Positions 9,912-46,743 of a DNA stretch of 64,000 nucleotides are shown piece after piece. How positions within the stretch are numbered: the stretch's first letter is position 1; every line of letters begins with the position of its first letter. This DNA is from an uncultured Alphaproteobacteria bacterium (GTDB lineage: Bacteria; Pseudomonadota; Alphaproteobacteria; Rs-D84). The notes under the pieces are model-generated. The model was not told the origin of the DNA. It ran no database searches and worked only from the letters and a program-made list of their open reading frames with translations. Position numbers and translations under genes: made by a program. The stretch lies in contig CAKQSE010000001.1 of NCBI GenBank assembly GCA_934272785.1, positions 41,212 through 105,211 of the forward strand, written 5' to 3'.

Positions 9912-10546
9912 ATTGGCCAAAATCAACAGAAATAGGTAAATTTTTATCCAAAGAAAGCTTTTATTCACATGATGCTGTATCGGGGGCGTTACGTCAGGTG
10001 CTGGTGGATGATGTTGAAAAAATTACGATATCGCACCGTTTTGCCAAAGATACATTGAATGTGGACGCTGGTACAGAATTTCCAGAAATATTGGTTTTGC
10101 ATATTAAATTAAAGCGTTGCGCAATCAACGAAAAATTGTTAAACGCCTTGGATAAATCTATCTGTGCCGGATATGTATTGTTTGTATTGGAATATATAGA
10201 TATGCAGTGCGCCAGCATTTCGCATAAAACAATTAATTCAAAGGGCGATAGCGTAATTGATAAACGGTGGACGACCGATTGGATGGATGATTTGAATCTG
10301 GAGTTACATGGAACAACTTTGGATCGGGTATATCAAGATTTAGTTAAACAAATATCCGGTGGGCGCGTGAAAACAACCGATAATAATCTGATGCAGGCGG
10401 TTGAACGCGATATAGAACGGACGAGTCTTGAAAGACAAATCGCCGATTTGGAAAGAAAACTGCAAAATACCGTTCAAGTAAATAAAAAATTTGAAATAAA
10501 AGACCAAATTCGTAAAATAGAGGCGAAAGTAAAGGATTTGTCATGA
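9908..10546 (+). CDS. hypothetical protein (~212 aa), possibly DUF4391-like, coupled to the SNF2 helicase
   Basis: Its ATG overlaps the helicase stop (ATGA) and its stop overlaps the next start, so it is co-transcribed. I recall DUF4391 proteins of this size recurring between a helicase-related protein and Type III mod genes, but I recognise no DUF4391 signature in the sequence itself. Confidence 0.55.
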   Translation: MNWPKSTEIGKFLSKESFYSHDAVSGALRQVLVDDVEKITISHRFAKDTLNVDAGTEFPEILVLHIKLKRCAINEKLLNALDKSICAGYVLFVLEYIDMQCASISHKTINSKGDSVIDKRWTTDWMDDLNLELHGTTLDRVYQDLVKQISGGRVKTTDNNLMQAVERDIERTSLERQIADLERKLQNTVQVNKKFEIKDQIRKIEAKVKDLS

Positions 10547-13925: not shown

Positions 13926-13943
13926 ACCAAGGGGCGATACACA

Positions 13944-16900
13944 ATGGTCATGAAGATAAAATATAAAAGCCAAGATTTCCAAACAGATGCAACAAATGCC
14001 ATCTGTGATGTATTTGTTGGGCAACCAAAGCAACGTGCGCAATCATACATTTTGGATCCGGGGCAATCAAACGATAATACCAGCGATTTGATTCATTTTG
14101 ATGCGTATGCGAATCCTGCCGTGGCGATAAATAATGATGTTGTATTAGAAAATATAAACAAACAACAAATCAAGGTTGGAATAAAGCCAAACGAAGAACC
14201 AATAAACGGATTGCTTAATTTATCTGTGGAAATGGAAACTGGTACCGGTAAAACATACACTTATACCAAGACGATGTATGAATTGAATAAGCGGTACGGA
14301 TGGTCAAAATTTATCGTTATTGTCCCATCGGTTGCAATTCGTGAAGGGGTGTATAAATCTTTTCAATCAACCGCAGAACACTTCAAAGATCAATACGGCA
14401 AAGCGATAAGATTCTTTATCTATAATTCTGCACATCCAAACGATATTGAAGGTTTCGCAACGGATTCAAACATTCATGTAATGATCATAAATATGCAGGC
14501 ATTTGCATCACGGGGTGAAGATGCACGCCGCATTTATATGAAATTGGATACATTTCGTTCGCGTCGCCCGATCGATGTTTTGGCGGCAACACATCCTATA
14601 TTGATTTTGGATGAACCGCAATCTATGGGTGGGCCGGTTGTTACAAGAATGATGCAGAGTTTTAATCCATTGTTTATATTGCGTTATTCGGCGACGCATC
14701 GTGACCCACATTATATGGTGTATCGTTTGGATGCGCTGGATGCCTATAACCGTAAATTGGTTAAAAAGATCGCGGTTCGTGGTATATCTGTTTTGGGCGA
14801 TACGGCAACAAATGGATATATTTATGTATCAAAAATCAATGTATTTCCAAACAAAAACCCCACGGTTACGATGGAAATAGATTATCAAAACGCAACACAA
14901 ATTACCAAAAGAACGTTGAATTTTGAACATGGCGACAATTTGTATGACAGATCTAACAGATTGGAAGAATATAAAGATCGCTGGGTTATAACCGATATTG
15001 ATGCACGTGATGATTCAGTGCACTTTGAAAATGGTACAGTATTGCATGTCGGTGATGGTGTCGGTAATATGAACGAAGAACAAATTCGTCGTATTCAGAT
15101 TCGTGAAACAATCAACGCCCATTTGGAACAAGAAGAAAGGTTGTTTGAACGTGGCATCAAAGTATTATCCTTGTTCTTTATTGACGAAGTAGCCAAATAT
15201 CGTACCGCCGATGATCAGGGTGGTGTCTACGCCCAGATGTTCGAACAGGAATATGTTGCCGCAGTACAAGATCGGTTGTCACAACTGGGGTTGAATCCAG
15301 AATATGAAAAATTCCTGAGGGGGACAGATGCACATAAATCGCATGCTGGATATTTCTCCATTGATAAAAAGGGTAAAATCCAAGACAGTAAAGTTGGGCG
15401 TTCAGAAACTTCTGCCAGCAAAGAGGGTGATGTCGCCGCATACGATTTGATTATGAAGGATAAAGAACGCCTGTTATCTCGCGAAGAACCAGTGCGGTTC
15501 ATATTTTCGCACTCTGCATTACGCGAAGGTTGGGATAATCAGAACGTGTTCCAAATTTGCACATTGAAACAAAGCACCAACGATGTGTCCAGGCGGCAAG
15601 AGTTGGGCCGTGGTATGCGTTTGTGTGTAAATCAAAATGGCGATCGTATGGATTATTCTGTTTTGGGCGATAGTATTCATAAGATAAACGTTTTGACAGT
15701 TGTTGCATCTGAAAGTTACGAGGCCTTTGCAAAGGGGTTACAATCTGAATATAACGAAGAATTGAAAAACCGTCCGCGTGTTATAACGCCGCAGTTGTTT
15801 AAACAGGCAATTAGATTAGAAACCGGTGAAACGCATCCGGTGACCGAAGAAGAATCCAGGCGTATCTATAATCATCTCATTCGCAAAAACTACATTGATG
15901 ATAATGGCAATTTAACGCAAGATTTTTATACCGCGAAAACAACTGGTGTGCTGGTCATGCCAGAAGGATTCCCTGCGGATGAAATCATCAGAATAGCAGA
16001 ATCTGTTTATAGGCCGATTGAGATTGAAAATCGCAATAAAACCCGTGTCAATATTGACATCAATAAAAAGAACTTTGCAAAACAAGAATTCCAAGAATTA
16101 TGGAACAGAATCAACAAAAAATCTGCATATACAGTTGATTTTGCATCTGATGAATTGGAAAGAAAAGCAATTGAAAGCCTTAATGATAATCTGCATATAA
16201 CCCCAGTAACGGTCGTAGTAACGGGTGGTTTCATCAAAGAAATAACAGAAAATGGTTTTGTAGATGGCGACCGAGTGGCCAGAAGAACCGTCGTAAAAAC
16301 TGCAGAAGTCGGCTTGAAATATGATCTGATTGGAAAAATAGCAGAAGGGACACAATTAACTAGAAAATGTGTGGCGAATATCTTACGTGGTATTCGTAAA
16401 GAAACCTTTGAACAATTTAAAGCCAATCCGCAAGATTTTATCACCAAGGCGATAGGTTTGATAAACAATGAAAAAGCAACAACGGTTATTGAGCATATAA
16501 CCTATAATCCTGTTGATGACCACTTTGATATGAGTATATTTACCGAGCCAGGGAAGCAGATTTTGGCAGATAAAGCCGTAAAAACAGATAAACATCACAT
16601 TTATAACTATGTGGATGCAGATTCTGATATTGAAAAGAATATGGCAACTGAGCTGGAACATCAAGATGATGTGTGTGTTTATGCCAAATTACCGCGCGGT
16701 TTTTATATAAATACCCCAGTCGGTAAGTATAATCCGGACTGGGCCATTGCATTTAAACAGGGGGCTGTGAAACACGTCTACTTTGTTGCCGAAACCAAGG
16801 GAACAATGGAAACACTGAACTTGAAACCTGTTGAATTGGCAAAAATTAACTGCGCCAAGAAACATTTCCAAGCTATCAGTGGCGATAATGTTAAATATGA

Positions 16901-16946
16901 TGTTGTGGACACTTATGAACATTTGATGGATATTGTAACCAAATAA
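13944..16946 (+). CDS. res: Type III restriction enzyme Res subunit (SF2 helicase + PD-(D/E)xK nuclease)
   Basis: Walker A LSVEMETGTGKTYTYTKT, a motif II variant ILILDEPQSMGG, and a C-terminal nuclease motif YNPDW…VYFVAETKG (PD…ExK). Size ~1000 aa, typical for Type III Res. Confidence 0.9.
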   Translation: MVMKIKYKSQDFQTDATNAICDVFVGQPKQRAQSYILDPGQSNDNTSDLIHFDAYANPAVAINNDVVLENINKQQIKVGIKPNEEPINGLLNLSVEMETGTGKTYTYTKTMYELNKRYGWSKFIVIVPSVAIREGVYKSFQSTAEHFKDQYGKAIRFFIYNSAHPNDIEGFATDSNIHVMIINMQAFASRGEDARRIYMKLDTFRSRRPIDVLAATHPILILDEPQSMGGPVVTRMMQSFNPLFILRYSATHRDPHYMVYRLDALDAYNRKLVKKIAVRGISVLGDTATNGYIYVSKINVFPNKNPTVTMEIDYQNATQITKRTLNFEHGDNLYDRSNRLEEYKDRWVITDIDARDDSVHFENGTVLHVGDGVGNMNEEQIRRIQIRETINAHLEQEERLFERGIKVLSLFFIDEVAKYRTADDQGGVYAQMFEQEYVAAVQDRLSQLGLNPEYEKFLRGTDAHKSHAGYFSIDKKGKIQDSKVGRSETSASKEGDVAAYDLIMKDKERLLSREEPVRFIFSHSALREGWDNQNVFQICTLKQSTNDVSRRQELGRGMRLCVNQNGDRMDYSVLGDSIHKINVLTVVASESYEAFAKGLQSEYNEELKNRPRVITPQLFKQAIRLETGETHPVTEEESRRIYNHLIRKNYIDDNGNLTQDFYTAKTTGVLVMPEGFPADEIIRIAESVYRPIEIENRNKTRVNIDINKKNFAKQEFQELWNRINKKSAYTVDFASDELERKAIESLNDNLHITPVTVVVTGGFIKEITENGFVDGDRVARRTVVKTAEVGLKYDLIGKIAEGTQLTRKCVANILRGIRKETFEQFKANPQDFITKAIGLINNEKATTVIEHITYNPVDDHFDMSIFTEPGKQILADKAVKTDKHHIYNYVDADSDIEKNMATELEHQDDVCVYAKLPRGFYINTPVGKYNPDWAIAFKQGAVKHVYFVAETKGTMETLNLKPVELAKINCAKKHFQAISGDNVKYDVVDTYEHLMDIVTK

Positions 16947-16973
16947 TAATTCTTTAATAACTTGACTTATACC

Positions 16974-17008
16974 CCTTTGTAAGCAGTAATTGTGCAACCT
17001 TACAAAGG
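16974..17008. other. perfect 10-bp-stem hairpin (cctttgtaag / cttacaaagg, 15-nt loop) at the junction between res and the phage-like remnant
   Basis: Seen directly. There is no T-tract, and the 3' arm supplies aaaggag as an RBS for the downstream ORF. Confidence 0.5.
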
Positions 17009-17015
17009 AGTAATT

Positions 17016-17219
17016 ATGGGGTATAAAAATCCGCCGGTGGAATATCGGTTTCGACCCGGACAATCGGGCAATCCATACGGGCGAATGGGGCGCCGTGTGT
17101 CCGAACACGAACGGCAATGTCTGTTGCGTATGATGGTGGATGCGATATGCGATTATCGTCCGAAAAACAACACGCGTTTACGCAAAATTATGGGGATATT
17201 GCATGAAACAATTGACTAG
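17016..17219 (+). CDS. DUF5681-like phage-associated small protein (probable fragment)
   Basis: MGYKNPPVEYRFRPGQSGNPYGRMGR: the P-x-E-Y-R-F-x-P-G-Q-S-G-N-P-x-G-R motif is characteristic of DUF5681 proteins found next to phage terminase or recombinase genes. Only ~67 aa. Confidence 0.4.
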   Translation: MGYKNPPVEYRFRPGQSGNPYGRMGRRVSEHERQCLLRMMVDAICDYRPKNNTRLRKIMGILHETID

Positions 17220-17646
17220 TATGCCGAGCAGTTTCTCGGATTTGCAAAAGATGTCTAAAACCGCACGGACCGCCCTTTGGGCGAGATATGTGCCACATTC
17301 GTTTGCGGGACAAAACAAGGTCCTGTGGTACTATATTCAGTGCGAGCAAATGGATGTACGCATACTGCCGAAACATATGGTTAAATTGCGTAAGTACAGG
17401 GATAAGCCTGCTGATTGTATGACACGGGTTTGTAAAACAAAATATCGTTTGGCAACTGGCACGACTATAACCAAGTCTTTTCGTGGTGTGGCGCATCGCG
17501 TGATGGTCTGTGATGACGGCATGTTTGAATATAATGGTCAGAAATTCAGAACACTATCTGGTGTGGCGAGCAGTATCGCAGGGATAAAAATATCCGGCCC
17601 CGACTTCTTTGGTTTTAGCAAAAGGAAAAAGAATGCCGAAAATTAG
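17203..17646 (+). CDS. DUF2924 domain protein (recombinase-associated)
   Basis: The C-terminus …FEYNGQKFRTLSGVASSIAGIKISGPDFFGF matches the DUF2924 signature, and the gene lies immediately upstream of a large serine recombinase, as in alphaproteobacterial prophages. Confidence 0.65.
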   Translation: MKQLTSMPSSFSDLQKMSKTARTALWARYVPHSFAGQNKVLWYYIQCEQMDVRILPKHMVKLRKYRDKPADCMTRVCKTKYRLATGTTITKSFRGVAHRVMVCDDGMFEYNGQKFRTLSGVASSIAGIKISGPDFFGFSKRKKNAEN

Positions 17647-19198
17647 GTGTGCGATTTACACACGAAAATCAACCGAACACGGTCTGGAATTAGAATTTAA
17701 TTCACTGCAAAATCAAGAAGAGGCATGTAAGGCGTATATTGCATCCCAATCATTTAATGGTTGGGAATATTATAAAACATATACCGATGCGGCTATATCA
17801 GGCGGGACAATGTCGCGCCCTGCATTACAGCAGATGTAGGATGATATGTCGCGTGGCCTGATAAATGTGGTTGTTGTATACAAGGTTGATCGTCTGTCAC
17901 GTTCTATTCTGGATTTTCACAGTATGATGAAATACTTTGAAAAATATAATGCCAATTTCGTATCTATTACCCAGTCGTTTGATACATCAAATTCTATGGG
18001 CAAATTGACATTAAATATGCTGCTGTCGTTTGCTCAGTTTGAACGTGAAGTTGCGTCTGAACGCGTGCGCGATAAAATCCGCGCCAGCAAGTCCAAAGGT
18101 ATGTGGCTGGGCGGCGCGCCACGCTTGGGCTATGATTTGAAAGATAAAAAACTGATAATAAATGAACAAGAGGCCGAACAAATCCGTGATTTATTTAACG
18201 CATATCTGCGCCTGGGCAGTGTGTCGGCCCTGATTGACTATGCGGCAGATAAAAATATATTTAATAAACAGTGGAAATCAAAGCGCGGTGCCGTATGGGG
18301 CGGGCGGGAACTCACCAAACATTCGCTGCATCGCATTTTGCGGGACAAAATTTATATCGGAATGATAGAAAGCAAGGTCGCTAATATCTGCGCCCCGGGC
18401 GAGCATCAGGCTATTATAGACACAGAAACATTTAATCACGTGCAGGAAATGCTGACCAAAAATGGCAACGATAAGACTGCACGCGGTGGCTCGCCAAACC
18501 TGATTACGGGAAAGTTATTCAATGCGGCGGGTGTAAAATTTACCAATCAGCGTACCTGTGGTGCGGGCAAGACGCCAAAATATTATTACGCCACACGGGG
18601 ATTTTATCTGCCAGCGCCGGAATTGGATACGATTGTTGCGCGTGCCATAAATGACTTTATGGATTCCGATATGTCAAACCTTGGTGACGGTATTGCAACG
18701 ACATTGAAACGTATTGATACGCACACCATGGAGTATGATGCGCGGCGTAAATTCATTCGCACAATGATACGCAAGGTCGTGTACACTGAAAATCAGATAA
18801 TGATATTTATAAACCTCAGTGCTGGTGAATTACAAAAATATACGGGCGATACTTTTAATCAAAATTCTAAGCCTATGGAATACACGACAGACGCCGATGG
18901 GGTAATCATAAAATGCCCGGTATTTTTGAAAAAGTACAGCAAGACAAACTCGCTGCTAAACATCGTTGATAACAACCATTTAATCGTGCGTGCTTTTGCT
19001 ACGGCGTTTCACTATCGTGATGTGTACGAGCGCGGGCGCACCGTCCCGGAAATTGCAACAGATGAACACGCATCAGAAACCACAGTGCGGCGATATCTGA
19101 AACTGGCGTATATCAATCCGCAAATCATAAATGATGTTTTAGATGCAAAAACGCCATATCGTGTGGACGACCTGTTCCGAATATCGCCAATGTTTTGA
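17609..19198 (+). pseudogene. large serine recombinase interrupted by an in-frame TAG at 17837-17839
   Basis: ORF 17609-17839 encodes the N-terminal catalytic region (IYTRKSTE…RPALQQM*). ORF 17846-19198 continues in the same frame with the resolvase core DRLSRS…ANFVSITQSFDTS…FAQFEREVASERVRDKI and the large-recombinase/zinc-ribbon region. Both ORFs are in frame 2, and the STDEQ box has degenerated to STEHGLE. Confidence 0.75.
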
Positions 19199-19370
19199 CG
19201 CATTCCGCCACTATAAAAAACGGGGTTGTATGTAACCCCGCTTGTTTTTGCGGTTTGGTGTCTTGCGCCGCCACATACAAAATATCAAAACAAAAAATAC
19301 CCCGAAAATCACGCAGAATTCCGGGGTGTTAAAATCACAATTAAACCATAGTGATTTCAATAAATTATCT

Positions 19371-19444
19371 TGGTTGGGGCGCACGGATTCGAACCATGAT
19401 AAAGAGAACCAAAATCTCTTGTCCTACCATTAGACGACACCCCA
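19371..19444 (-). tRNA. tRNA-Gln (anticodon UUG)
   Basis: The reverse complement TGGGGTGTCGTCTAATGGTAGGACAAGAGATTTTGGTTCTCTTTATCATGGTTCGAATCCGTGCGCCCCAACCA folds as a cloverleaf with anticodon stem AGAGA/TCTCT, loop TTTTGGT, T-arm CATGG-TTCGAAT-CCGTG and acceptor TGGGGTG/CGCCCCA. Confidence 0.85.
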
Positions 19445-19656
19445 AAGGCGTCTATGATTATAAATATCTTTTGATTTTTTGCAATAATAAAAATTTAATA
19501 TTTTGAATATGCAATTAAAAAAATCTGATTTTTTTGCTATTTTATACTTGCATTAAACTGTTTAGAATATATAATTATTCAGTTTTTTAATGATTAAAAG
19601 CCTTTTAATTATTAAAACGCTTACCATTACATTTTGCCGCAAAAGGGGCACGAGAT

Positions 19657-28977: not shown

Positions 28978-29721
28978 ATGACACGATTTCGCGTAACACT
29001 GGAATATGACGGCACAGATCTAATCGGCTGGCAAGAAAATCGCCAGGGCCCATCGGTCCAGTCTGTGTTGCGTGATGCGATTTATGCGTTTTGTGGTGCG
29101 CGTCCTGATGTTGTCGCGGCGGGGCGTACCGATGCCGGTGTGCATGCGATTGCAATGGTGGCGCATTTTGATTTGCCTGGCGATTACACCGCAAACACGG
29201 TTATGCGTGCGGTGAATTTTTATCTGGTGGGTCGGCCTGTTGTGATTACATCGTGTGACATGGTGGCCGATGATTTTAATGCACGATTTGATTGCACGGC
29301 GCGCCATTATAAATACATTGTTTTGAATCGCAGTGCCGCCCCGGTATTAAATAAAAATCGCGTGTGGTGGGTGCCGCGTGCGCTGGACATTGATGCAATG
29401 CGCGGTGCCGCGTCACGTCTGGTGGGGCATCACGATTTTACCAGTTTTCGCGCCACCCAGTGCCAGGCCAAAAGTCCGATAAAAACACTGGATTCATGCA
29501 GCGTTACAAAAAACGGCGATGAAATAATTTTTGAATTTTCGGCGCGTTCATTTCTGCATCACCAGGTGCGAAATATGGTTGGGACATTGGTTGAAATTGG
29601 CCTGGGCAAACCATACGACATTGATGAAATATTCGCCGCGCGATCGCGCAGTGCCGCCGGCCCCACCGCCCCGGCGTCGGGATTGTATTTTATTGCGGCC
29701 GACTATGCCACGGACGATTGA
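28978..29721 (+). CDS. truA: tRNA pseudouridine(38-40) synthase
   Basis: RFRVTLEYDGTDLIGWQ…AAGRTDAGVHA places the catalytic Asp in the GRTDAGVHA motif. Confidence 0.9.
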   Translation: MTRFRVTLEYDGTDLIGWQENRQGPSVQSVLRDAIYAFCGARPDVVAAGRTDAGVHAIAMVAHFDLPGDYTANTVMRAVNFYLVGRPVVITSCDMVADDFNARFDCTARHYKYIVLNRSAAPVLNKNRVWWVPRALDIDAMRGAASRLVGHHDFTSFRATQCQAKSPIKTLDSCSVTKNGDEIIFEFSARSFLHHQVRNMVGTLVEIGLGKPYDIDEIFAARSRSAAGPTAPASGLYFIAADYATDD

Positions 29722-31660
29722 TAGGCACGTATTGAACGCGACCTGATGGATATATCACAAATCCATTGCGCAGTATTTTATGATTACAGTGTGGCGCATC
29801 AATATTAAAATATGACACGATGTATTTCACACTGTCGTCGCGACACAGTTGAACAATATTTTTGGCCAGTGGCACAAATTTCTGGATATAAACCAATTTG
29901 AATTTTGGTGTGGTAAAGGTATAGACGCCATGGTCGTGCTTTTTACGAATGTTTGGTGTATCTGTTTTGTCGCCACGCAATTGTTTCCAGGTATCAAATG
30001 CAAAGTAATGATTTGACGCGCGCGATTTGTTAAATACCAATTTGCCGTCCTGGACAAAACCGACCAGTTCATGATCATACGTCGCCATAAATACCGGACG
30101 CGGATTGGCAATGGTAACAATAATACCGACCATGGCAATTGCGGCAAACAGCGCACAGTTTATTTTGCGCGTGCGAAATTTTAATAACACCAACGCCATA
30201 AATGCCAGAATGAATATAACCAGTGCCGCATTTGGAATATGTGGCATACCAACCGTTGCACCGGGTATCGCGACAATTTTGTGCGCGATGGCCAATGTCG
30301 CATTATAAACATTGTCGGCCCAGTCCAATGGAAACCTCAGTCCAAATGTTGTGGTAACCGTTCCCACAATTACCAGTGGCATAATCGCAACCGAAAATAT
30401 CGGCAACAATACCAGATTCCCAATCAGTCCATATAACGGAAATGAATAAAAGTGCGCAACAACAAACGGTGCCGTAAATATCGTTGCGACGACGGATGTC
30501 ATTGTCGCGGTATAGATAAATTTTAAAATCTTGTTTTCTGGGGTGCGTGGTCGCACCACGCCCCAAAACCATACCAGGCCAAAAATCGCGGCAAACGATA
30601 ATTGAAAACCGGCCTGCATTACATAATGCGGATTGATACAGAATATGACCAACATTGCCATACACACATTGCGCAATGAAATTGCGTCACGCCCCATTAT
30701 GATTGCGGTGAACACAAATGACGCCATCAGAAACGCGCGCATTGTCGCAACGTCGCACCCTGATAAAAATAAATAGAATCCCAATCCAACCCATGCACAT
30801 ATTGTTGCGGGAATTCGTGCCGGCATGCGACGCGTAACGGGTGCAATCAACCGAAATATGCCAAAGAATATCGCAAACAGCCAACCCGATACCAGGGTTA
30901 CGTGAAATCCGCTGATTGACCAAACGTGGCCGATTCCGACCGCGGTCCATACCGGCCCATCATCACGTGGCACGGCGTTTTTATAGCCCAGGACCAAACT
31001 GTCACTAAGAAACGAATTTGTTTTTGTATGCAGATAATTGCGCAGTTTTGCAATATGTGCGCCGCCGCCAGATGTTATGATTTTAAAATCTTTGATATAT
31101 CCTGTGGCGGTCAGATTATTAAAATATGACCAACGCGCATAATCAAATGCGGTCGGTGCATACGCGGGGCTGGGGCGATACAGATTTACGGTTGCCGAAA
31201 TTGTGTCGCCGATTTCTGGGGTTGCGTTTGTCAGTTGGGTTGATACGCGAATTGTTGCACTGCTTGTGGTAATTTGGTTCGGCGCGGTGCGAATAAATAT
31301 GCGCGCCCGGTCGTCGGTATAGTCGATGTTTCGAACGGTGCCGATAACCGTAACATCACGCAGTGGGTGCGCGATTTGTGGCGTCTGGAACGTGTGCGTG
31401 AACGCCATCGCATACATAAAACCAAACGCAAATGTTGCGCCGCCGCGCAACAATATTGGCGCGCGTCGCCACAATGCAATCGCGCCAAAAAATATGACAA
31501 AAATCCACGGGAAAATTATTCTGGGTTCCACGTTACATGTGAAATACAGTGCGGCACCAAATGCCATCAAAAACGGCACCCATAAAAATTTATTATCTGA
31601 TTGATTTTCCCAGAATTCATGCATGTGAAAATTATAGGAATTTATTTCACCCACATGCAA
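29690..31660 (-). CDS. comEC: ComEC/Rec2 family DNA internalisation channel protein
   Basis: 656 aa polytopic membrane protein with the competence-domain pattern. Its 3' end overlaps the truA 3' end convergently. Confidence 0.75.
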   Translation of the reverse strand: MHVGEINSYNFHMHEFWENQSDNKFLWVPFLMAFGAALYFTCNVEPRIIFPWIFVIFFGAIALWRRAPILLRGGATFAFGFMYAMAFTHTFQTPQIAHPLRDVTVIGTVRNIDYTDDRARIFIRTAPNQITTSSATIRVSTQLTNATPEIGDTISATVNLYRPSPAYAPTAFDYARWSYFNNLTATGYIKDFKIITSGGGAHIAKLRNYLHTKTNSFLSDSLVLGYKNAVPRDDGPVWTAVGIGHVWSISGFHVTLVSGWLFAIFFGIFRLIAPVTRRMPARIPATICAWVGLGFYLFLSGCDVATMRAFLMASFVFTAIIMGRDAISLRNVCMAMLVIFCINPHYVMQAGFQLSFAAIFGLVWFWGVVRPRTPENKILKFIYTATMTSVVATIFTAPFVVAHFYSFPLYGLIGNLVLLPIFSVAIMPLVIVGTVTTTFGLRFPLDWADNVYNATLAIAHKIVAIPGATVGMPHIPNAALVIFILAFMALVLLKFRTRKINCALFAAIAMVGIIVTIANPRPVFMATYDHELVGFVQDGKLVFNKSRASNHYFAFDTWKQLRGDKTDTPNIRKKHDHGVYTFTTPKFKLVYIQKFVPLAKNIVQLCRDDSVKYIVSYFNIDAPHCNHKILRNGFVIYPSGRVQYVPINRPWHSRPQ

Positions 31661-33704: not shown

Positions 33705-33778
33705 ATTCAGTGCGCCCCAGGGCGCACTTATTTGTTGACCCGTATGCGCATTTTTTACTAACATTGATATCATCAAAG

Positions 33779-34933
33779 ATGAGAAGGGTTTTAATCGCAT
33801 TTTTTATCGGTGTGTTTTTGTCTGGTGGCGCGATGGCGGCACAATATCGTGCGGCCTTGGTCGCCAATATGGACAATGGCCGCGTTTTGATAAAAGAAAA
33901 TTCGGACCAGTTAAATTATCCCGCGTCACTGACCAAAATTATGACGTTGTATTTAACGTTTGACGCATTGGAACATGGTCGGTTGCATTTGGACGATTAC
34001 TTGATTGTATCAAATTCGGCCGCGGCCGCATCGCCGGTAAAACTGGGCATTGCCGCCGGCAGCAAGATTAGCGTCGAAGACGCGATAAAGGCCGTTGCGG
34101 TATTGAGTGCGAATGATGTCGCACGCGTCCTGGCCGAAAATTTAAAGGGCGGCAAAGAAGGCAATTTTGCCGATATGATGACGCGCGTTGCAAATGAAAT
34201 TGGCCTGACAAATACTAATTTTGAAAATTCATCTGGACTGCCAAATGACGACCATATGTCAACGGCGCGCGATATTGCGTTGCTGTCTATGGCGGTGTAT
34301 AAACACTTTCCGCAATATTGGAAATATTTCGGTATCAGAACGTGGACATATAACGGCAAAACATACACAAACGGAAATCGTCTGTTGGCGTCATACCCGG
34401 GGTGTGACGGTATGAAAACCGGTTTCACGAACAAGTCGCGTTATTCTCTGGTTGCCACGGCAAAGCGTGATGGCACGCATTTGATTGTTGTCGTCTTGGG
34501 GGCGGAAAACAAGGACGTGCGCGCATCTGTCGCGACCCAGTTATTAAATCGCGGTTTTGCAATGTTGGGGACGGATGCCACAACAGTCGTAAAGAATTCG
34601 CCGGTGGCATCGAATGCCGCCCCACAAACAATGTCGGCGGCATACAGTGCGGCAACCGCATCTGCGGCACCAACGTATAACGTCACACCTGCGCGCACGG
34701 TGCCGGCAACGTCGGCGGGAAATGCGGGCGTGCAATTTGGTGCATTTTCGTCCCAGAACGCCGCCGCGACCCAGGTTGCAAATGTGAAAAATAAACTGGG
34801 CGTTACCGCCACGATTGAGCCCACCGCAAATGGCATGTATCGCGTTCGTGCAAACGGTTTGTCGGATGCCACTGCCGCCGATATTCGCACGCGCGCGTCG
34901 GCAATGGGAATTGACTGTTACGTATTTCATTGA
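33779..34933 (+). CDS. D-alanyl-D-alanine carboxypeptidase (PBP5/DacC-like) fused to a C-terminal SPOR domain
   Basis: Signal peptide MRRVLIAFFIGVFLSGGAMA, S-x-x-K motif PASLTKIM, S-x-N motif LSANDV and a KTG box. A Ser/Ala/Thr-rich linker leads to GVQFGAFSSQNAAATQ…YRVRANGLSDATAADIRTRASAMGIDCYVF, a SPOR fold signature. Confidence 0.8.
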   Translation: MRRVLIAFFIGVFLSGGAMAAQYRAALVANMDNGRVLIKENSDQLNYPASLTKIMTLYLTFDALEHGRLHLDDYLIVSNSAAAASPVKLGIAAGSKISVEDAIKAVAVLSANDVARVLAENLKGGKEGNFADMMTRVANEIGLTNTNFENSSGLPNDDHMSTARDIALLSMAVYKHFPQYWKYFGIRTWTYNGKTYTNGNRLLASYPGCDGMKTGFTNKSRYSLVATAKRDGTHLIVVVLGAENKDVRASVATQLLNRGFAMLGTDATTVVKNSPVASNAAPQTMSAAYSAATASAAPTYNVTPARTVPATSAGNAGVQFGAFSSQNAAATQVANVKNKLGVTATIEPTANGMYRVRANGLSDATAADIRTRASAMGIDCYVFH

Positions 34934-40345: not shown

Positions 40346-40375
40346 ATTATTAGATAATACAGATTGGGGGACGCT

Positions 40376-40750
40376 ATGAATGCAGAGTTAGAATCCGAAA
40401 TCATCAAGGTAATTAAATCCTGTGATGTTAAATACAATGAATTGCGGGGCAATTACATATATACCGTTCATGATGCAACGGGTATGAAAATAATAGAGGT
40501 ATGCGGTGGTCCCGGATTTGATCTGCAAACGGTCCGGGTAAATGGCCAGATTGTCGGCAGTTATCGTTTCACCGTGGCCGCGTGTGTCCCGCCCGCGATT
40601 TTGCAAGAATCCCGCAGTGTCCACAACATTACCATGGCGTGCCAGACCAGATATCGTGAACTGGAAACAATGAAAAAGAATAAGGAATCAACAGAAAACG
40701 CAGACCAAATTGCGCTGGCGTTCTTGCGTTCACGGGTCAAGACAAAATAG
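40376..40750 (+). CDS. hypothetical protein
   Basis: Track ORF with protein-like composition (MNAELESEIIKVIKSCDVKYNELRGNYIYTVHDATGMKIIEV…). I recognise no family. Confidence 0.4.
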   Translation: MNAELESEIIKVIKSCDVKYNELRGNYIYTVHDATGMKIIEVCGGPGFDLQTVRVNGQIVGSYRFTVAACVPPAILQESRSVHNITMACQTRYRELETMKKNKESTENADQIALAFLRSRVKTK

Positions 40751-41102
40751 TGTCACAGCAACGGGCCAGGTATTTAAACAGTGCGTCCGGCGTTTGAATT
40801 CGTTTGTGGCGCAGGCCGATAACGCGCTTTGTAAAATCAACACATGTTATGCCACCGCGCGCGCCCACATCGGGGGTGATATTTGGCGCGCAAATAAATT
40901 CCCATCCATGCGCGCGCAGTATGTTTATATCGCGCGCATTTAATGTAACCCGCGCAATATTGCGACGGGTTACGAATTGATACATAACAAACGGTTTCTG
41001 TGCGCCGGGGCGGACAATTATGGGGGCGCAGTGCCGAAAGTGACGACATAATATTCGTGGCAAAATTTTTGACGTTTTCACAGAAAATGCAATTATAACC
41101 AT
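40737..41102 (-). CDS. hypothetical protein
   Basis: Track ORF with an RBS-like aaaaaggat upstream, co-directional with the upstream small gene. Weak. Confidence 0.3.
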   Translation of the reverse strand: MVIIAFSVKTSKILPRILCRHFRHCAPIIVRPGAQKPFVMYQFVTRRNIARVTLNARDINILRAHGWEFICAPNITPDVGARGGITCVDFTKRVIGLRHKRIQTPDALFKYLARCCDTILS

Positions 41103-41117
41103 TGTGACAATCCTTTT

Positions 41118-41471
41118 TTATTCCTGGGAAATCCAACCGCGTGCGATTGCGGCATCACCGATTGTCTGCATTGCACGCCGCCATAAATCTGCCGCCCGAT
41201 TTTCGGCCCAGATATATTGATGTGGTGCGCGTCGGCGGTCCCCGAATTCCTTCATCACGCGTAATTGTTCATCAGATAATTTCCCACACAGATATAATTT
41301 TGTTACCAGCGTTTCCACATCGACCAATTCGGCAACGCGGCGTGTGGCACAGTCGCGTGGTCGCATAAATGCATTGCGAACAGATTTAGAATACAGAAAC
41401 CAAAACCACATTTGTTCTGCACTGTGAAATTTTTCTGGTGCGTATTCTGGTTGAATGTGTTGTGCTGTCAT
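41118..41471 (-). CDS. hypothetical protein
   Basis: A strong RBS aggagg precedes the ATG and the composition is protein-like. I recognise no family. Confidence 0.5.
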   Translation of the reverse strand: MTAQHIQPEYAPEKFHSAEQMWFWFLYSKSVRNAFMRPRDCATRRVAELVDVETLVTKLYLCGKLSDEQLRVMKEFGDRRRAPHQYIWAENRAADLWRRAMQTIGDAAIARGWISQE

Positions 41472-41749
41472 TTTTTTCTCCTCCTGTTGTATTTAATTTA
41501 TGTGGCACAGGAATAAATTCCTGTGCCATGATATATAGACCAACAATTGACGTATGTAAAATATTACAACCGTTGGTTGAAATCAGAATCGGAAAACCGA
41601 TTCATTACGCGATTTTTAATTTATATAAACGAATCGCGAAATAAATAAAAAACGCGCCACGGCGCGTTTGGTATTTGTGGGTGATGGTATGGTGATGTGT
41701 AACGGACTCCTTTGGTATAAAAATAAACCCGCCATGTGGCGGGTGTGGA

Positions 41750-44152
41750 TTACAATATCGGCGGGAAACAGTCGCCCCCGGTATCAGGACAACAATTGAA
41801 TCCCTGGTCGCCCATATCAGTGAACGTTTCCCCGGTGCAGCATCCGTTTGCGTCGGGCGTTGTGCCATCTTCGCACGTGATAACGGATTGCACGGTGTCT
41901 TCTTCGACCTTGGCCGTTTGGAACGGATTTTGAATCGAGCCATCATCGTTGTATTTCAGTCCCAAAACATTTTCATTGTATGTTTTGCTGCCGACACCAC
42001 CTGTGCTGGCGATACTGTTAGAATTACTCGCGTCTTGCTGATTTTCATATACCGCCGCCTGGCGTGCATTATTGATAGCCTGATAGTTTTTAGATTTGCA
42101 ATACGCCAACACCGTGCGATAGTCATACCCAGAGCTGTATATTTGTTCAGTCATACTGCCATTGATATCATATATGCCTTTGTCGTCTGCTTTGCAATAT
42201 TGGTCAAAATTAAATGAGCGAACCTGGCCAACCCATGAGTCATCATCGGCTTTGCGACCACGCGTAAAGCTTTCCCAGTTGGCGCGCACGTTGCGATTGA
42301 TATCTGCTTTTTGAGAGGCCGCAGTCACTTTAGCTACAGAACAATTTTTCGTCGTATCTTTACCGCATGTGATGACCAAATCAGTTGGTGAAAATACCGT
42401 TATACGCGTGCCGGCCGCAATTGAAAATGGGGGAACGGTATTGTCCAGCATATCCACAATAAACTTTTGGGCAACCTGGTTCCATGCGGTGATAATTTCA
42501 TTTTTCGCCAATTCAGACGAACGCACAGTGCCCGATTGCACAACCGTATTGTTATCCAGGTCAATTTGATTCACAAATTTATCGGTAATCGGCGCAATCA
42601 TATTCACCGCCGCCGGCACCACCGCGGTCAGTAATGGCAACACCATTTGTTCGATATAATCCGTGCTGCCATATCCGGGAACGCCCGCGCGACCCTGGGA
42701 ATCGCCAGAAAATGGGGTCGATTCTTGACTGGCAAAATTAAATTCAACGCCACTGGGTAAAATAAATTGATACCAACGAATATCCATACGACCAACGGTT
42801 TTATATGGCCCGGGAATATCACCCGTGACATACCCCAGTAACAACGTTCCTGCCGGAATTACAACCGTGCGACCATTATCAGAATACACATTGCGATCAA
42901 CCGTTGCACGCACCGGCAATGTTTTTGCGCCTTCTGTATACAATGATGGATCGGCGCGAACCTCGGACACAATGGTGGCCGGAATTGGCTTGTATTGCCG
43001 CAATACAAATGTGCGGTCAAACGGGTCAGATGAAAATATCGCCTGACCACTGGTCCCAATGATAACGTCGTCTGAATTATCCTTCATCGTGATGCCACTG
43101 CGAAAACGGGTGACGTCTTCGGTGCCGGAATCCGCCCCAGACATTTTTTCAATTTCATCGGTCGTCAATTGATATGCGCGATTTTTAACGCGCGATACCG
43201 GATTGGATAATTGTGGCAACGCGCCATCCGAATTGATTGCGGTGTATCCGATATGTTCGGCGTCGGTCCCAATCTTTTTACCAGTGTTGTTTATATCGGT
43301 GATGATACCACTGTCGGGATTATAGACGCCCGTTGGATTGTTGCATTTTTTATCTGAAAACGGGTGAAAGTAATACGCGCCGCGTTCTGGACGAATCCAT
43401 CCGATTTGCGTGCCGTTTGAATTGTACCCCGGAAATGCAAATTCAGAACACGCAACAGCCGGCGTGTCATTGACCACCGTTTCCGCTGGCGCATTATCAC
43501 GTGCGTCGGCAAATGGATCGGCGGGGGCCAATGTCTCAACCTGGGTTTTAATCTCTTCCTGGACCGGTTTAGGCTCTGGCATTGGTGCGGGGGCGACAAC
43601 CGGTTCTGGTTCCTTGACAGATACCGGCGCAACCGCTGATAATACCAAAGCAATCTTTTCAGAATTAGACATGTCTTTGGGTTGGCGCGCATCGTGCCAA
43701 TCAACAAACATTGCCAATGTTTTACTTTCCATTGCCGACGTTGGCGCGAATTCCAGTGTGATACTGCAAGCGGTAACTTGGTTTATTTCGGCCATTTTTT
43801 TGCAGGTGTCCTTGACGCTCAATCCCGCAACACTTTCGTGATAGCGAACATCTTCGATTTTTGCCGGGGCCGTTGCATTAAAACGCAATGTGATTTTTTT
43901 TGTTGTGCCAATCGTAACATCGGTCCATGTCAACGTGTTTTTATCCCAGTCATCGGTCGGATTCGCCGTGATAACCAATTGGATTGGATTGTCATCAGCG
44001 GTGCTCTGGACAGTGGATGATTTGCCACGCCCGCCCAACAACAAAATCAGCAATATCATCACGACAATAAATGCCGCCGCCAGCAACATCCACTGGATAT
44101 GCTTTGGTGTTGTCTTTCGAATATTCGTAATTTGCTGTTTGATACCGCTCAT
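41750..44152 (-). CDS. virB10: type IV secretion system VirB10/TrbI-like protein with ~210-aa Cys-rich C-terminal extension
   Basis: N-terminal TM helix (WMLLAAAFIVVMILLILLLGG), a Pro-rich linker (EPEPVVAPAPMPEPKPV), and a VirB10 beta-barrel signature (IPAGTLLLGYVTGDI…GRMDIRWYQFILPSGVEFNF…GRAGVPGYG…AAGTRITVFSPTDLVI). An extra tail with ~10 Cys follows (…GCCTGETFTDMGDQGFNCCPDTGGDCFPPIL). Confidence 0.75.
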   Translation of the reverse strand: MSGIKQQITNIRKTTPKHIQWMLLAAAFIVVMILLILLLGGRGKSSTVQSTADDNPIQLVITANPTDDWDKNTLTWTDVTIGTTKKITLRFNATAPAKIEDVRYHESVAGLSVKDTCKKMAEINQVTACSITLEFAPTSAMESKTLAMFVDWHDARQPKDMSNSEKIALVLSAVAPVSVKEPEPVVAPAPMPEPKPVQEEIKTQVETLAPADPFADARDNAPAETVVNDTPAVACSEFAFPGYNSNGTQIGWIRPERGAYYFHPFSDKKCNNPTGVYNPDSGIITDINNTGKKIGTDAEHIGYTAINSDGALPQLSNPVSRVKNRAYQLTTDEIEKMSGADSGTEDVTRFRSGITMKDNSDDVIIGTSGQAIFSSDPFDRTFVLRQYKPIPATIVSEVRADPSLYTEGAKTLPVRATVDRNVYSDNGRTVVIPAGTLLLGYVTGDIPGPYKTVGRMDIRWYQFILPSGVEFNFASQESTPFSGDSQGRAGVPGYGSTDYIEQMVLPLLTAVVPAAVNMIAPITDKFVNQIDLDNNTVVQSGTVRSSELAKNEIITAWNQVAQKFIVDMLDNTVPPFSIAAGTRITVFSPTDLVITCGKDTTKNCSVAKVTAASQKADINRNVRANWESFTRGRKADDDSWVGQVRSFNFDQYCKADDKGIYDINGSMTEQIYSSGYDYRTVLAYCKSKNYQAINNARQAAVYENQQDASNSNSIASTGGVGSKTYNENVLGLKYNDDGSIQNPFQTAKVEEDTVQSVITCEDGTTPDANGCCTGETFTDMGDQGFNCCPDTGGDCFPPIL

Positions 44153-44176
44153 ATTAAATCCCGCCTGGAATATCAG

Positions 44177-45730
44177 TTATTGAATACGCACAACGCTGCA
44201 ACTGGCCCCGCTGAATTTCAACAGTTGGTCGCACAGTTTCTGGGCCGTGTCAATGTCGGCCATTGGACCGATGCGCAAACGATACAGACGCGCCGCGCGT
44301 GATGTTGCACCCAATTCGCCAACACCCTGTTCGTCAACGGCAAAGAACACCTTGTCCTTGTACGGGGTCAGCAATCCAACACCATCATCGCCGCTGAATT
44401 TCGCCAGCAATCCCGTCCAATAATCGTCCAGTGCCTTGACCGATGTGTCCGATTTCAATTCAACGGCAACACCGTTCTGGTTGCTGGTAATCAGTGGAAT
44501 ATTCGTCTGGGGCAGGTAAGAGCCCGCCGTCACGCGTTCGGTCGGCATCATATTTACACCAGTGGTGCCCGACGACATAGCCGGCATTGTGGCGGTTGTC
44601 GCAACAGACGCCGGCATGTAATATCCCGTGCCCGCAATCGCGTTTGTGTTCGAAATGTATGTCGGCGTCCCGGTGTAATTTACACCCGCCGTATTGATTG
44701 CATTTTGATCCATTGAATACGCAATGTTATTCAGTGATTGTCCCGACATCATGGATTGTGCAACGTTCGCCTCGGCCAATGCCATGACCGACGCCGTGTC
44801 GGCAATCAAGAACGGCTTTTCGCGCTTTTTAATACACACAATGCGTTGCCCACTGCGCAGGACCATGTCGCCTACGGCCTCTACTATCAACAGGCGGCCA
44901 TCGTCACCATCGGTGCGGAATCCAACCGGGGATTCACCACCCTCGACCAACAATGAAACCACCGGACGCTGGGTCATGGCAATAACCTTGTCGCCAAAGT
45001 CAATGTATGTGAATATACGATCGCGCCATACGCGTTCTGGGGCGATAACATAATCGTCTGGGTTTGGAACAAAGATATCCAAATCAAAACGGAATTCCGA
45101 TGGATCAATCTTCATTGATTTAATCCAACCGTAATCTTCGCCATCGGCACCAACCGTGCTGGTGGTTTTGGCGGCCCTTTTAAATATAGATGATGCGCCA
45201 CTGGTCGCGTCGTTCGCACTTGTTGCACCTGGCAAAGTCGTATTGCCGTCCAGAACAACCTCTACCTGGGAATAGGTGATTTCGCTGGAATTAGATGGTT
45301 CACTGCGCAGATAGAAAATATATTTATTACCAGATTTGCCCGTCACAATCAGGTTTGTGTCCGAACCCTGGTTGCTGGCGGTGGGGCTGATAATCATTGT
45401 GCGATCGCCCTGGTTCGCCTCTATCGTGAACAGACCCTGGTTTCCGATAACCGCGTCGGCAATTTGTTCGCCATTCGGCAGGGACACCATCGTCACCATA
45501 CCGTTACGCAGTTTGATGGGCAATACACTGCCCGTGGTCCATGACAATTGGGCGTATCCGGGTTTTGTGCTGCCCGCGGCCATATTTGCGGTTGGGTTAT
45601 CCCATGCGTCCTGGACACCATAGTTCACCGCGATCGCCGGTGCAATCATGCACATCGACGCCAGGCAAAACACAGATATGTTTAACTTGATTGCTGTCTT
45701 AAAACTCATGCCCAATTCCTTACCTTTCAA
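44177..45730 (-). CDS. virB9: type IV secretion system VirB9/TrbG-like protein with ~150-aa C-terminal extension
   Basis: Signal peptide, an N-terminal VirB9 domain (LFTIEANQGDRTMIISP…NLIVTGKSGNKYIFYL) and a C-terminal VirB9 domain (…DRIFTYIDFGDKVIAMTQRPVVSLLVEGGESPVGFRTDGDDGRLLIVEAVGDMVLRSGQRIVCI), then an extra S/T/N-rich tail. Confidence 0.7.
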   Translation of the reverse strand: MKGKELGMSFKTAIKLNISVFCLASMCMIAPAIAVNYGVQDAWDNPTANMAAGSTKPGYAQLSWTTGSVLPIKLRNGMVTMVSLPNGEQIADAVIGNQGLFTIEANQGDRTMIISPTASNQGSDTNLIVTGKSGNKYIFYLRSEPSNSSEITYSQVEVVLDGNTTLPGATSANDATSGASSIFKRAAKTTSTVGADGEDYGWIKSMKIDPSEFRFDLDIFVPNPDDYVIAPERVWRDRIFTYIDFGDKVIAMTQRPVVSLLVEGGESPVGFRTDGDDGRLLIVEAVGDMVLRSGQRIVCIKKREKPFLIADTASVMALAEANVAQSMMSGQSLNNIAYSMDQNAINTAGVNYTGTPTYISNTNAIAGTGYYMPASVATTATMPAMSSGTTGVNMMPTERVTAGSYLPQTNIPLITSNQNGVAVELKSDTSVKALDDYWTGLLAKFSGDDGVGLLTPYKDKVFFAVDEQGVGELGATSRAARLYRLRIGPMADIDTAQKLCDQLLKFSGASCSVVRIQ

Positions 45731-45754
45731 TTCATGTCGTGCGATGGGGACATA

Positions 45755-46432
45755 TTACTGTCCGTCATCAAGATATCCCGTGTCCAGCGGGTCCCCGTTC
45801 CCAGATTCCACGCGGTATTCCGATACGCGCACACCCAGCGGGTTATCCAGACGTTCCGACCACTTTAATTTTGTGTCGTCGTCCATTTGTAATTTCAATA
45901 CGATTGTATAATCTTTTTTGGCGGTCTGTCCACCACTATCTTCACAAAAATACTTAAATTTTACCGCGAACGTATCCGCCGTGCGTGGTGTGACCGCACC
46001 GTTTTCGAATTCCACGCTGCAACTGAATTCAAAATCAGGCGCGCTGTTCATTATGGCGTTCCACATATTTGTCTGGGTAAATGCGTCATAAACCGCGTCC
46101 GTGGACCATGTGTGAACGATGCCCGTCGCGTCATTGTTCCATTTGCGCAACATTACGCGTCCATCAGGCACGATTTCATTACGCGCCTTGATATATTCGC
46201 GAATAAATGCGCGTTTATACCATTTGACATTTTCGTCGGTTGTCGGCAACTGGTGAACGACAACGTCCCGGTCGGCACGCAGTTCGGAATTCAAAAAGAA
46301 CACCTGGGGCCGGTTCAGCGGGAACATTTTATACAGTGTATATCCTAACACCCCCAGCACGACAATCGCGCCAGCCAGCACAAACGTCATCAGTCGTGAT
46401 AATAAAATTGGCGGTTCTATGCGGTCTTGCAA
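45755..46432 (-). CDS. virB8: type IV secretion system VirB8/TrbF-like protein
   Basis: Bitopic layout with an N-terminal TM helix and a periplasmic NTF2-like domain carrying a conserved NPLG motif (…RLDNPLGVRVSEYRV). TTG start with RBS gagagaggaag. It is directly upstream of virB9 and virB10. Confidence 0.65.
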   Translation of the reverse strand: MQDRIEPPILLSRLMTFVLAGAIVVLGVLGYTLYKMFPLNRPQVFFLNSELRADRDVVVHQLPTTDENVKWYKRAFIREYIKARNEIVPDGRVMLRKWNNDATGIVHTWSTDAVYDAFTQTNMWNAIMNSAPDFEFSCSVEFENGAVTPRTADTFAVKFKYFCEDSGGQTAKKDYTIVLKLQMDDDTKLKWSERLDNPLGVRVSEYRVESGNGDPLDTGYLDDGQ

Positions 46433-46539
46433 TGACTTCCTCTCTCTGTTTTTAACAAATCATAGACAAAAAGTGGCACTGCGTGCAAGTAAAAAGTGCG
46501 AAAAATCAAAAAAAATCAGACCGGTTTTTCAGATTTTGC

Positions 46540-46568
46540 TTGCGCGCGACGCGTTAAAATCATATAAT
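46540..46568 (+). promoter_or_regulatory. sigma70-like promoter (TTGCGC - 17 bp - TATAAT) upstream of tRNA-Trp/secE-nusG
   Basis: Hexamers and spacing read directly, ~100 bp upstream of tRNA-Trp. Confidence 0.4.
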
Positions 46569-46669
46569 ATGTGCGCTTTTTCTGCTTGCTTTTTCGTTTG
46601 TGTGTGCTATCCTGGCGCAGACTATCGGGATGGTTGCGTGATTGTGCAGGCATAAAAGCGACCAAAAAC

Positions 46670-46743
46670 AGGGGCATAGTTCAACGGTAGAATATCGGTC
46701 TCCAAAACCGCGGATAAGGGTTCGATTCCTTTTGCCCCTGCCA
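46670..46743 (+). tRNA. tRNA-Trp (anticodon CCA)
   Basis: AGGGGCATAGTTCAACGGTAGAATATCGGTCTCCAAAACCGCGGATAAGGGTTCGATTCCTTTTGCCCCTGCCA has anticodon loop CTCCAAA and sits in the canonical position before secE. Confidence 0.9.

Follow-up and report, generated by a model that had tools for sequence, protein, structure and literature searches.

A conserved virB8-virB9-virB10 block with elaborated VirB9 and VirB10 proteins in gut Alphaproteobacteria of the Rs-D84 lineage

The sequence analysed here, called the window throughout, is a stretch of 64,000 nucleotides (positions 41,212 to 105,211 of contig CAKQSE010000001.1, assembly GCA_934272785.1) from an uncultured alphaproteobacterium of the Rs-D84 lineage. 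On its minus strand it carries a block of three contiguous genes, virB8, virB9 and virB10, named after the components of type IV secretion systems (T4SSs) that their products resemble. This block is a real, selected and unusual variant of the T4SS machine, whose motor ATPases were not located in the regions inspected. The reading that we favour, with a probability of about 0.6, is that of a split, vertically inherited T4SS whose envelope scaffold, with lineage-specific decorations, is encoded by the block. The three open reading frames (ORFs) are all intact:

virB8, 45755..46432, minus strand: 225 aa; N-terminal transmembrane helix and periplasmic VirB8 domain; first gene of the operon
virB9, 44177..45730, minus strand: 517 aa; signal peptide, VirB9/CagX domains, linker and SPOR tail
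virB10, 41750..44152, minus strand: 800 aa; short cytoplasmic N-terminus, transmembrane helix at residues 21-40, decorated periplasmic region, TrbI barrel and C-terminal extension

Each product scored above the gathering cut-off of its own Pfam family: VirB8 with 48.5 bits against a cut-off of 23.2 (E 1.3e-12), VirB9 with 76 bits against 34.2 for CagX (residues 61-302, E 4.4e-21), and VirB10 with 57.1 bits against 35 for TrbI (residues 385-592, E 2.9e-15). The contiguous minus-strand triad described in an original prediction, made from the sequence alone, is thereby borne out. The same prediction had put VirB9 and VirB10 at about 1.7 and 2 times the canonical size; measured against the Agrobacterium reference operon (VirB9 270 aa, VirB10 403 aa), they are about 1.9 and 2.0 times as long.

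The block occupies a fixed chromosomal site. One genome per species was scanned for related loci, which yielded 79 loci, those of Candidatus (Ca.) Enterousia included, from human, ruminant, horse and other guts. All 79 share the gene order rplA-rplK-nusG-secE, virB8-virB9-virB10, orf117-orf121, yidC-lspA and an exchanger gene, a virB8 orthologue being detected in 72 of them. In the window the housekeeping neighbours are, on one side, a Na+/H+ exchanger/TrkA-N protein (KefB-like), lspA, yidC and two small ORFs and, on the other side, tRNA-Trp (46670-46743), secE, nusG, rplKAJL and rpoBC. The GC content of the block (0.47-0.51) is the same as that of its flanks. According to a genomic study of the lineage (PMC12306168), Ca. 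Enterousia is a member of the order Rs-D84, and these organisms have genomes of less than 1 Mb, lack most biosynthesis, including that of nucleotides, and are widespread in human and livestock guts, where they are thought to depend on partner cells by means that are unknown.

Alignments drawn from the 79 loci comprised 77 full-length VirB10 and 73 VirB9 orthologues, and more than 120 full-length VirB10 homologues with 55-100% identity were found in metagenomes. In 73-77 independent assemblies the genes retain both their reading frames and their lengths. The ratio of nonsynonymous to synonymous divergence (dN/dS) was calculated pairwise and region by region between the window and three close relatives, and ranged from 0.005 to 0.26 over all regions tested. 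It was 0.005-0.015 for the VirB9 core, 0.02-0.045 for the VirB9 SPOR tail, 0-0.09 for VirB8 (in which C138 and C163 are invariant), 0.06-0.13 for the VirB10 barrel, 0.03-0.04 for the VirB10 terminal module and 0.055-0.105 for the VirB10 domain at residues ~235-310. The block is thus under strong purifying selection. Since frames and lengths are kept and dN/dS lies well below 1, decay, fusion artefact and hidden stop codons are ruled out. The original prediction had allowed that its long proteins might be fusion artefacts caused by sequencing errors, or that their extensions might be low-complexity sequence absent from orthologues; the same-size, full-length orthologues dispose of the former, and the conservation of both extensions disposes of the latter.

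Two parts of VirB9 follow its conserved domains:

VirB9 linker, 44531..44770, minus strand: residues ~321-400, rich in S, T, A, G, N and M
VirB9 C-terminal tail, 44180..44530, minus strand: residues 401-517 (117 aa), with a SPOR domain at the end

Among the 73 orthologues, residues 200-320 show 96-98% identity and the tail 80-89%, with C500 invariant and C511 conserved in 99%. The linker varies in length from 61 to 89 aa, and, apart from the N-terminal signal-peptide region, no stretch of the protein is less conserved than residues 361-400. The Pfam SPOR model was recovered above its gathering cut-off of 21 in all 12 orthologue tails searched (23.5-26.6 bits, best E 5.3e-7), the alignment covering only positions 36-76 of the 76-position profile, that is its second half, and the ~40 C-terminal residues of VirB9. 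Judged by eye, the sequence before the aligned part fits the first beta-alpha-beta of the SPOR fold. A sequence search for solved SPOR structures with the VirB9 tail retrieved none. Because of this SPOR domain we read the tail as a predicted periplasmic anchor to peptidoglycan, and not as a surface-exposed module. Like SPOR proteins of the FtsN, DamX and RlpA type, VirB9 matches the profile over its C-terminal ~40 residues, with an upstream pattern that fits the beta-alpha-beta-beta-alpha-beta layout; here, however, it is a T4SS outer-membrane core subunit that bears the fused domain, and not a divisome or lytic protein. In the literature searched, we found no paper naming VirB9 together with a SPOR domain. 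In the window a D-Ala-D-Ala carboxypeptidase (Peptidase_S11; 33710-34933, plus strand) also ends in a SPOR domain (9.4e-8), and the organism therefore uses SPOR elsewhere besides VirB9.

VirB10 is elaborated on both sides of its barrel. Its segments are as follows, the first, second and fourth being read directly from the sequence, with confidence values (predicted local distance difference test, pLDDT) from AlphaFold2 (AF2):

Residues 1-20: cytoplasmic N-terminus
Residues 21-40: transmembrane helix
Residues ~56-175, 43628..43987, minus strand: Ig-like (ASH/PapD-like) beta-sandwich; AF2 pLDDT 74-82
Residues 176-200: Pro-rich stretch
Residues ~235-310, 43223..43450, minus strand: conserved beta-rich domain of unknown fold; invariant C235 and C270
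Residues 385-595, 42368..43000, minus strand: TrbI barrel (Pfam TrbI)
Residues 596-800: C-terminal extension of 205 aa, made of the following two parts
Residues 596-755, 41888..42367, minus strand: cassette part; framed by putative disulfides, hypervariable and mosaic; C596, C604 and C685 invariant, C653 99%
Residues 756-800 (45 aa), 41753..41887, minus strand: terminal 6-Cys module, C-x10-CC-x14-CC-x6-C

Foldseek matched the Ig-like segment to ASH/Ig-type sandwiches of the PDB with E-values of 5e-5 to 1e-3. Over the second domain, the identity to the window sequence was 74% for residues 241-280 and 59% for residues 281-320, and the pLDDT was about 66-76 over residues 241-300. The full-length AF2 model had a mean pLDDT of 49, the Ig-like and 235-300 domains being its only usable parts. 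Two long helices of the barrel (residues 496-529 and 545-572, window 42437-42667) appear in the AF2 secondary structure with low pLDDT and are taken as the putative outer-membrane antenna. Residues 521-560, with 92% identity over the 77 orthologues, form the most conserved stretch of the protein.

The original prediction had located the extra sequence C-terminal to the conserved domains. This holds for the 205-residue tail, but the tail accounts for only about half of the extra mass of VirB10, since about 200 residues lie N-terminal of the TrbI domain, which starts at residue 385; the Ig-like domain (56-175) and the conserved domain (235-310) inserted there had escaped attention. The count of about ten cysteines in the tail proved exact, residues 596-800 containing 10. 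Over the 77 orthologues the 14 cysteines of VirB10, C129 among them, are invariant, with the exception of C117 (97%) and C653 (99%). Plausible pairs are 117/129, 235/270, 596/604 and 653/685, to which are added the six cysteines within the last 41 residues. Disulfide bonding of these residues is predicted from their conservation, and a disulfide-stabilised tail, as first suggested, agrees with the conserved cysteines, including those of the terminal module, and with the dN/dS of 0.03-0.04.

The first part of the tail behaves as a recombining cassette. Between the window and its closest long-contig relative (locus L076), the nucleotide identity is 93-99% over virB8, virB9, most of virB10 and the small ORFs, and only 55-63% over VirB10 codons ~590-740. 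In the cassette dS reaches 1.44 and dN 0.36, against 0.09-0.54 and at most 0.15, respectively, in the rest of virB10. Such raised synonymous divergence points to the exchange of old alleles and not to relaxed constraint. Similarly, loci L009 and L024 have identical barrels with only 43% identity over residues 640-700. The loop between C653 and C685 exists in alternative forms that recur across the group and are switched between close relatives in 9 of 82 pairs. The putative extracellular loop of the antenna (residues 530-544) is, in contrast to the cassette, nearly invariant. Regions in contact with a variable outside partner typically show a pattern like that of the cassette, and this pattern is the sole hint here that part of the tail may be exposed. 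Modelled alone, the 205-residue tail had an AF2 pLDDT of 63 and no significant fold match in the PDB (best E 3.2); all its matches had E-values above 3, and the two among them to granulin hairpin stacks, although insignificant, provide a lead only.

The six cysteines of the terminal module are invariant in the 77 orthologues, the consensus being C.DG..PD.NGCC.GE.YTDMG.QGFNCCP..GGDCFPPI, and AF2 proposes a beta-hairpin, at moderate confidence. Pfam and NCBIfam contain no model that matches the module, so that it represents a domain restricted to the lineage and lacking a family model. When 1.84 billion representative proteins were searched exhaustively, it turned up in two other contexts: in small signal-peptide proteins with 2-3 tandem copies, and at the C-terminal end of an unrelated family of bitopic membrane proteins of ~650-810 aa, where a second search placed it at the end of 116 of 120 members. 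One of the small tandem-copy proteins is encoded on contig JAZRJE010000016.1, whose accession prefix resembles that of Enterousia assemblies. The module sits on proteins whose C-termini lie in the periplasm or beyond. Its presence in bitopic membrane and Sec-type secreted proteins fits the periplasm as well as a site beyond the outer membrane, and the surface exposure first proposed for the VirB10 tail does not follow from it. The module probably serves for docking or anchoring, either in the periplasm or at the outer membrane.

In outgroup locus L082 (GCA_031283185.1, Rickettsiales bacterium), an 811-aa secreted Cys-rich protein lies just upstream of virB8 (4305-6740, plus strand). It has repeated CC motifs (e.g. 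YxCCG and HCCGEKF) and no Pfam match, and may be related in design to the 6-Cys module.

The limits of the transcription unit were examined together with the small ORFs that follow it:

Terminator-like hairpin with T-run, 41727..41744, minus strand: directly after the virB10 stop
Second terminator-like hairpin, 41650-41669: bidirectional
Region between virB8 and tRNA-Trp/secE, 46433..46669, no strand assigned: presumed operon promoter region, divergent from tRNA-Trp-secE-nusG, by position
orf117, 41118..41471, minus strand: small conserved cytoplasmic-looking protein, in 76 of 79 loci, with 34 invariant columns
orf121, 40737..41102, minus strand: small conserved protein, in 75 of 79 loci, with invariant C19, H24 and C87

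In 73 of 74 loci a hairpin with a T-run was detected no more than 120 nt from the virB10 stop, against 3 of 74 inside virB10 and 22 of 74 inside virB9 as controls. This terminator-like hairpin delimits the transcription unit as virB8-virB9-virB10. The same detector also fired at the virB9/virB10 junction (window about 44150-44180) in 41 of 74 loci, above the within-gene rates; the signal may be an intercistronic hairpin or a by-product of conserved sequence. No consensus promoter is reported within 46433..46669. The two small downstream ORFs of the original prediction are real conserved genes, and they lie beyond the hairpin. Searches with Pfam, PHROGs, NCBIfam and PDB profiles returned nothing significant for either. 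Both are absent downstream of virB10 in outgroups L082 and L084. A five-gene unit including orf117 and orf121 was rejected on account of the virB10-end hairpin, of the synteny that extends over the whole region anyway, and of the other genes found downstream in the outgroups. The two proteins are probably neighbours of the system and not components of it.

Several lineages carry insertions beside the block. In some rumen lineages (L055, L058, L060, L067, L072) a large secreted protein is encoded between secE and virB8 and is divergently transcribed. The L055 copy (4671-7613, minus strand) has 980 aa rich in T, S, A and G, and the homologous open frame of L060 spans 7.4 kb. This protein has a small Cys-rich knot at its end (CIAAGDRCRDGSDCCSGNCVNGLC) and no Pfam match. 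The genes of the lineage insertions between orf121 and yidC in L050 and between secE and virB8 in L055 have no relation to T4SSs; among them are BamB-like, sigma-70 and LpxD genes and the large secreted protein. A 128-aa ORF between yidC and orf121 in the window (40364-40750, plus strand) was recovered, among the 79 loci, in the closest relative L076 only; it matches no family and could be either a strain-specific insertion or no gene at all.

The remaining components of a T4SS were searched for by using Agrobacterium VirB1-11 and VirD4 as phmmer queries against all the ORFs of the window and of the 79 related loci. VirB9 and VirB10 were the sole matches. The claimed isolation of the block from virB11 and virD4 is thus upheld, neither gene lying within 10 kb in any of the 79 genomes. 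No T2SSE or VirD4 homologue was found downstream of virB10, and the block does not form an operon of the rvh type, virB8-virB9-virB10-virB11-virD4.

The rvh system of Rickettsiales is nevertheless the known system that the block recalls in several respects. Both are chromosomal and vertically inherited in host-dependent Alphaproteobacteria, and in both a block opens with virB8-virB9-virB10; the loci are split in rvh and would be so here. No paralogues of the block's genes were found in the regions inspected. The rvh block goes on with virB11-virD4, whereas the present one stops at a terminator-like hairpin after virB10. We know of no SPOR fusion on RvhB9 and of no Cys-rich C-terminal extension on RvhB10.

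In the outgroups L082 and L084 (JGI metagenome) the triad is kept in other neighbourhoods, with no ATPase gene within 10 kb. L082 has a weak SPOR hit on VirB9 and the tail on VirB10, and L084 encodes just upstream of virB8 a 57-residue lipoprotein that is a VirB7-like candidate. Shortly downstream of virB10, both outgroups encode a homologous secreted protein of ~121 aa (L084 10882-11247, L082 12802-13170), which is unrelated to orf117 and orf121 and may be a lineage-specific accessory of the triad. The next closest barrels are those of giant VirB10 proteins with beta-flower repeats (locus L085). L085, from another gut alphaproteobacterial lineage, is the closest fuller relative and appears uncharacterised. 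Its positions 1-18000 encode, in order, five to six secreted proteins (255-521 aa), VirB8, a 59-aa lipoprotein, a second VirB8, VirB9-SPOR, a 2266-aa VirB10 and VirB11, the duplication of virB8 being shared with rvh. VirB8 and VirB10 are homologous to those of the window, and VirB9 is 42% identical to the window protein over 286 aa. L085 differs by its VirB7-like lipoprotein, its beta-flower VirB10 and its adjacent virB11, the window VirB10 having 800 aa and a 6-Cys tail with no virB11 beside it. Since the L085 VirB9 carries SPOR, as a weak C-terminal hit, the SPOR fusion is older than the Rs-D84 lineage, and the gene content of L085 indicates that the triad descends from a fuller T4SS of split, rvh-like style. 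A database search with the L085 VirB11 returned its own lineage alone, with at least 70% identity.

In the split T4SS that we favour, VirB8 would be the inner-membrane assembly subunit, and VirB9 and VirB10 would build the outer-membrane core, with the near-invariant two-helix antenna of VirB10 forming the outer-membrane pore. The flexible linker and the SPOR domain of VirB9 would tie this core to peptidoglycan. The VirB10 decorations would comprise the Ig-like domain after the transmembrane helix, the second conserved domain and the 205-residue disulfide-rich extension, the latter made up of a recombining cassette (about 590-740) followed by the conserved 6-Cys module that other envelope proteins also carry. 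The ATPases that energise the machine, VirB4 at the least, would have their genes at other sites, as is the case for the split rvh systems of Rickettsiales, and a cargo would be transported through the assembled core complex.

Several observations weigh against this reading. VirB4, VirB11, VirD4, VirB6, VirB2 and VirB3 were not found in the 64 kb window, within 10 kb on either side of the block in the 79 genomes or in the Rs-D84-type loci L081 and L083, the sequence inspected from the window, L081 and L083 amounting to about 10% of one genome's worth (each ~0.9 Mb) pooled from different genomes. VirB4 was not found either in loci L081-L084, and to our knowledge it is regarded as a universal T4SS hallmark. 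A VirB7-like lipoprotein is absent from the Rs-D84 operon. The NCBIfam equivalog cut-offs were missed widely (VirB10 58.9 against 220, VirB9 51.3 against 217.7, VirB8 17.3 against 188). The antenna assignment rests on the Pfam alignment and secondary structure, because AF2 has low confidence for the TrbI barrel. Finally, the accessible part of the genomic study of the lineage (PMC12306168) does not mention a T4SS.

The loci around genes of the module-bearing families likewise contained no T4SS genes. One of them (L081 2668-21833, near a membrane protein gene, P0275, that ends in the module) includes gcrA, a prepilin peptidase (Peptidase_A24), several unknown genes and a 3072-aa protein without Pfam hit.

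The same absences could mean that VirB4, VirB11 and VirD4 have been lost and that the triad is a repurposed complex, serving as a passive envelope-spanning conduit, as a tether or as an organelle for attachment to partner cells, with the hypervariable VirB10 cassette as the presumed contact surface. Genes for ATPases are missing from the vicinity of the triad in the 79 genomes and in two outgroups of different neighbourhood, and the triad itself is the conserved unit. The tail of VirB10 is hypervariable, and SPOR and the shared 6-Cys module suggest a structural role in the envelope. Moreover, the genomes are extremely reduced, with no T4SS reported for them in the accessible part of the study (PMC12306168). 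These arguments are offset by the inspected share of any such genome, about 10%, and by the related L085, which keeps VirB11 beside virB10. Split T4SS loci are normal in related Alphaproteobacteria, as rvh illustrates, and we know of no T4SS-derived machine without VirB4. We therefore consider such a repurposing unlikely. Bolder still, Rs-D84 might be devoid of any VirB4, VirB11 or VirD4 and the triad be the first ATPase-free T4SS-derived machine, a wall-anchored conduit or attachment organelle that docks partners and draws metabolites from them, with the cassette as partner-recognition surface and the 6-Cys module as an undescribed envelope docking domain; we hold this fuller scenario to be improbable.

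A role in DNA uptake, comparable to that of the ComB system of Helicobacter and Campylobacter, appears just as improbable. The triad would then belong to an import-mode T4SS without VirB11 or VirD4, handing DNA to ComEC and so supplying nucleotides to a cell that does not synthesise them. The comB6-10 operon of Helicobacter likewise ends at ComB10 without VirB11 or VirD4, and the only solved structures detected by the VirB10 profile were CagY (E 1.6e-4) and ComB10 (E 7e-3). The window also contains a gene for a comEC-type competence channel (29690-31660, minus strand; Pfam Competence 8.5e-51, plus DUF4131), which lies 10 kb from the block and bears on such a role without being specific to it. 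The lineage lacks nucleotide biosynthesis according to PMC12306168. Against this, the NCBIfam T4SS_ComB10 model was matched at 45.9 bits (E 4e-12) for an equivalog cut-off of 300 and was outscored by the VirB10 model. ComB4 (VirB4), ComB6 and ComB7 were not found here, and ComB proteins have canonical lengths and bear neither SPOR nor Cys-rich extensions. ComEC occurs widely and is as a rule paired with type IV pili, a prepilin peptidase gene being present in a related genome (L081), and the nearest fuller relative has VirB11.

A decaying remnant, an assembly or fusion artefact, or a fragment of a mobile conjugative element, which the lack of the rest of the operon and the oversized proteins might evoke, is hardly credible and already contradicted by frames that are intact and of the same size in 73-77 independent assemblies, by dN/dS far below 1 everywhere, by the same housekeeping site in 79 species-level genomes with a GC content matching the flanks, and by plasmid VirB10 proteins being only 26-30% identical to that of the window, over the barrel only.

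Oversized VirB9- and VirB10-like proteins are also found in the Cag core of H. pylori (CagX and CagY), to which the original prediction had likened the block. The analogy is a loose one. CagY is the nearest solved relative of VirB10, with marginal similarity, and it has a recombining variable region that parallels the mosaic cassette described here. However, CagY is elaborated N-terminal of its VirB10 domain, with variation in an N-terminal and middle repeat region, whereas in the present protein the variable part follows the barrel on its C-terminal side. CagX, for its part, lacks a SPOR domain.

Farther from the block, the window contains a low-GC island (6000-19450; 35-43% against about 48%) whose end adjoins tRNA-Gln (19371-19444). 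It encodes a SNF2 helicase, DUF4391, Schlafen/AlbA_2, an N6/N4 DNA methylase, a ResIII and endonuclease protein, DUF2924 and a serine recombinase, and looks like an integrated restriction-modification or defence island. In an Rfam scan, tRNAs were the sole RNA families matched.

Two features of the block have, as far as we found, no described counterpart. The VirB9-SPOR fusion would anchor an outer-membrane core to the wall through a domain type not reported for VirB9, and the 45-residue 6-Cys module is an undescribed unit common to several envelope proteins. In addition, VirB10 has a hypervariable cassette whose behaviour resembles that of variable regions in surface antigens or receptors. 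Strict conservation of the block is striking given the tiny genomes of these organisms, and a conserved secretion-type envelope machine is an obvious candidate for the partner-cell interface of Rs-D84 and Ca. Enterousia. Whether or not its ATPases are encoded elsewhere decides between an ordinary split T4SS and a much stranger machine.

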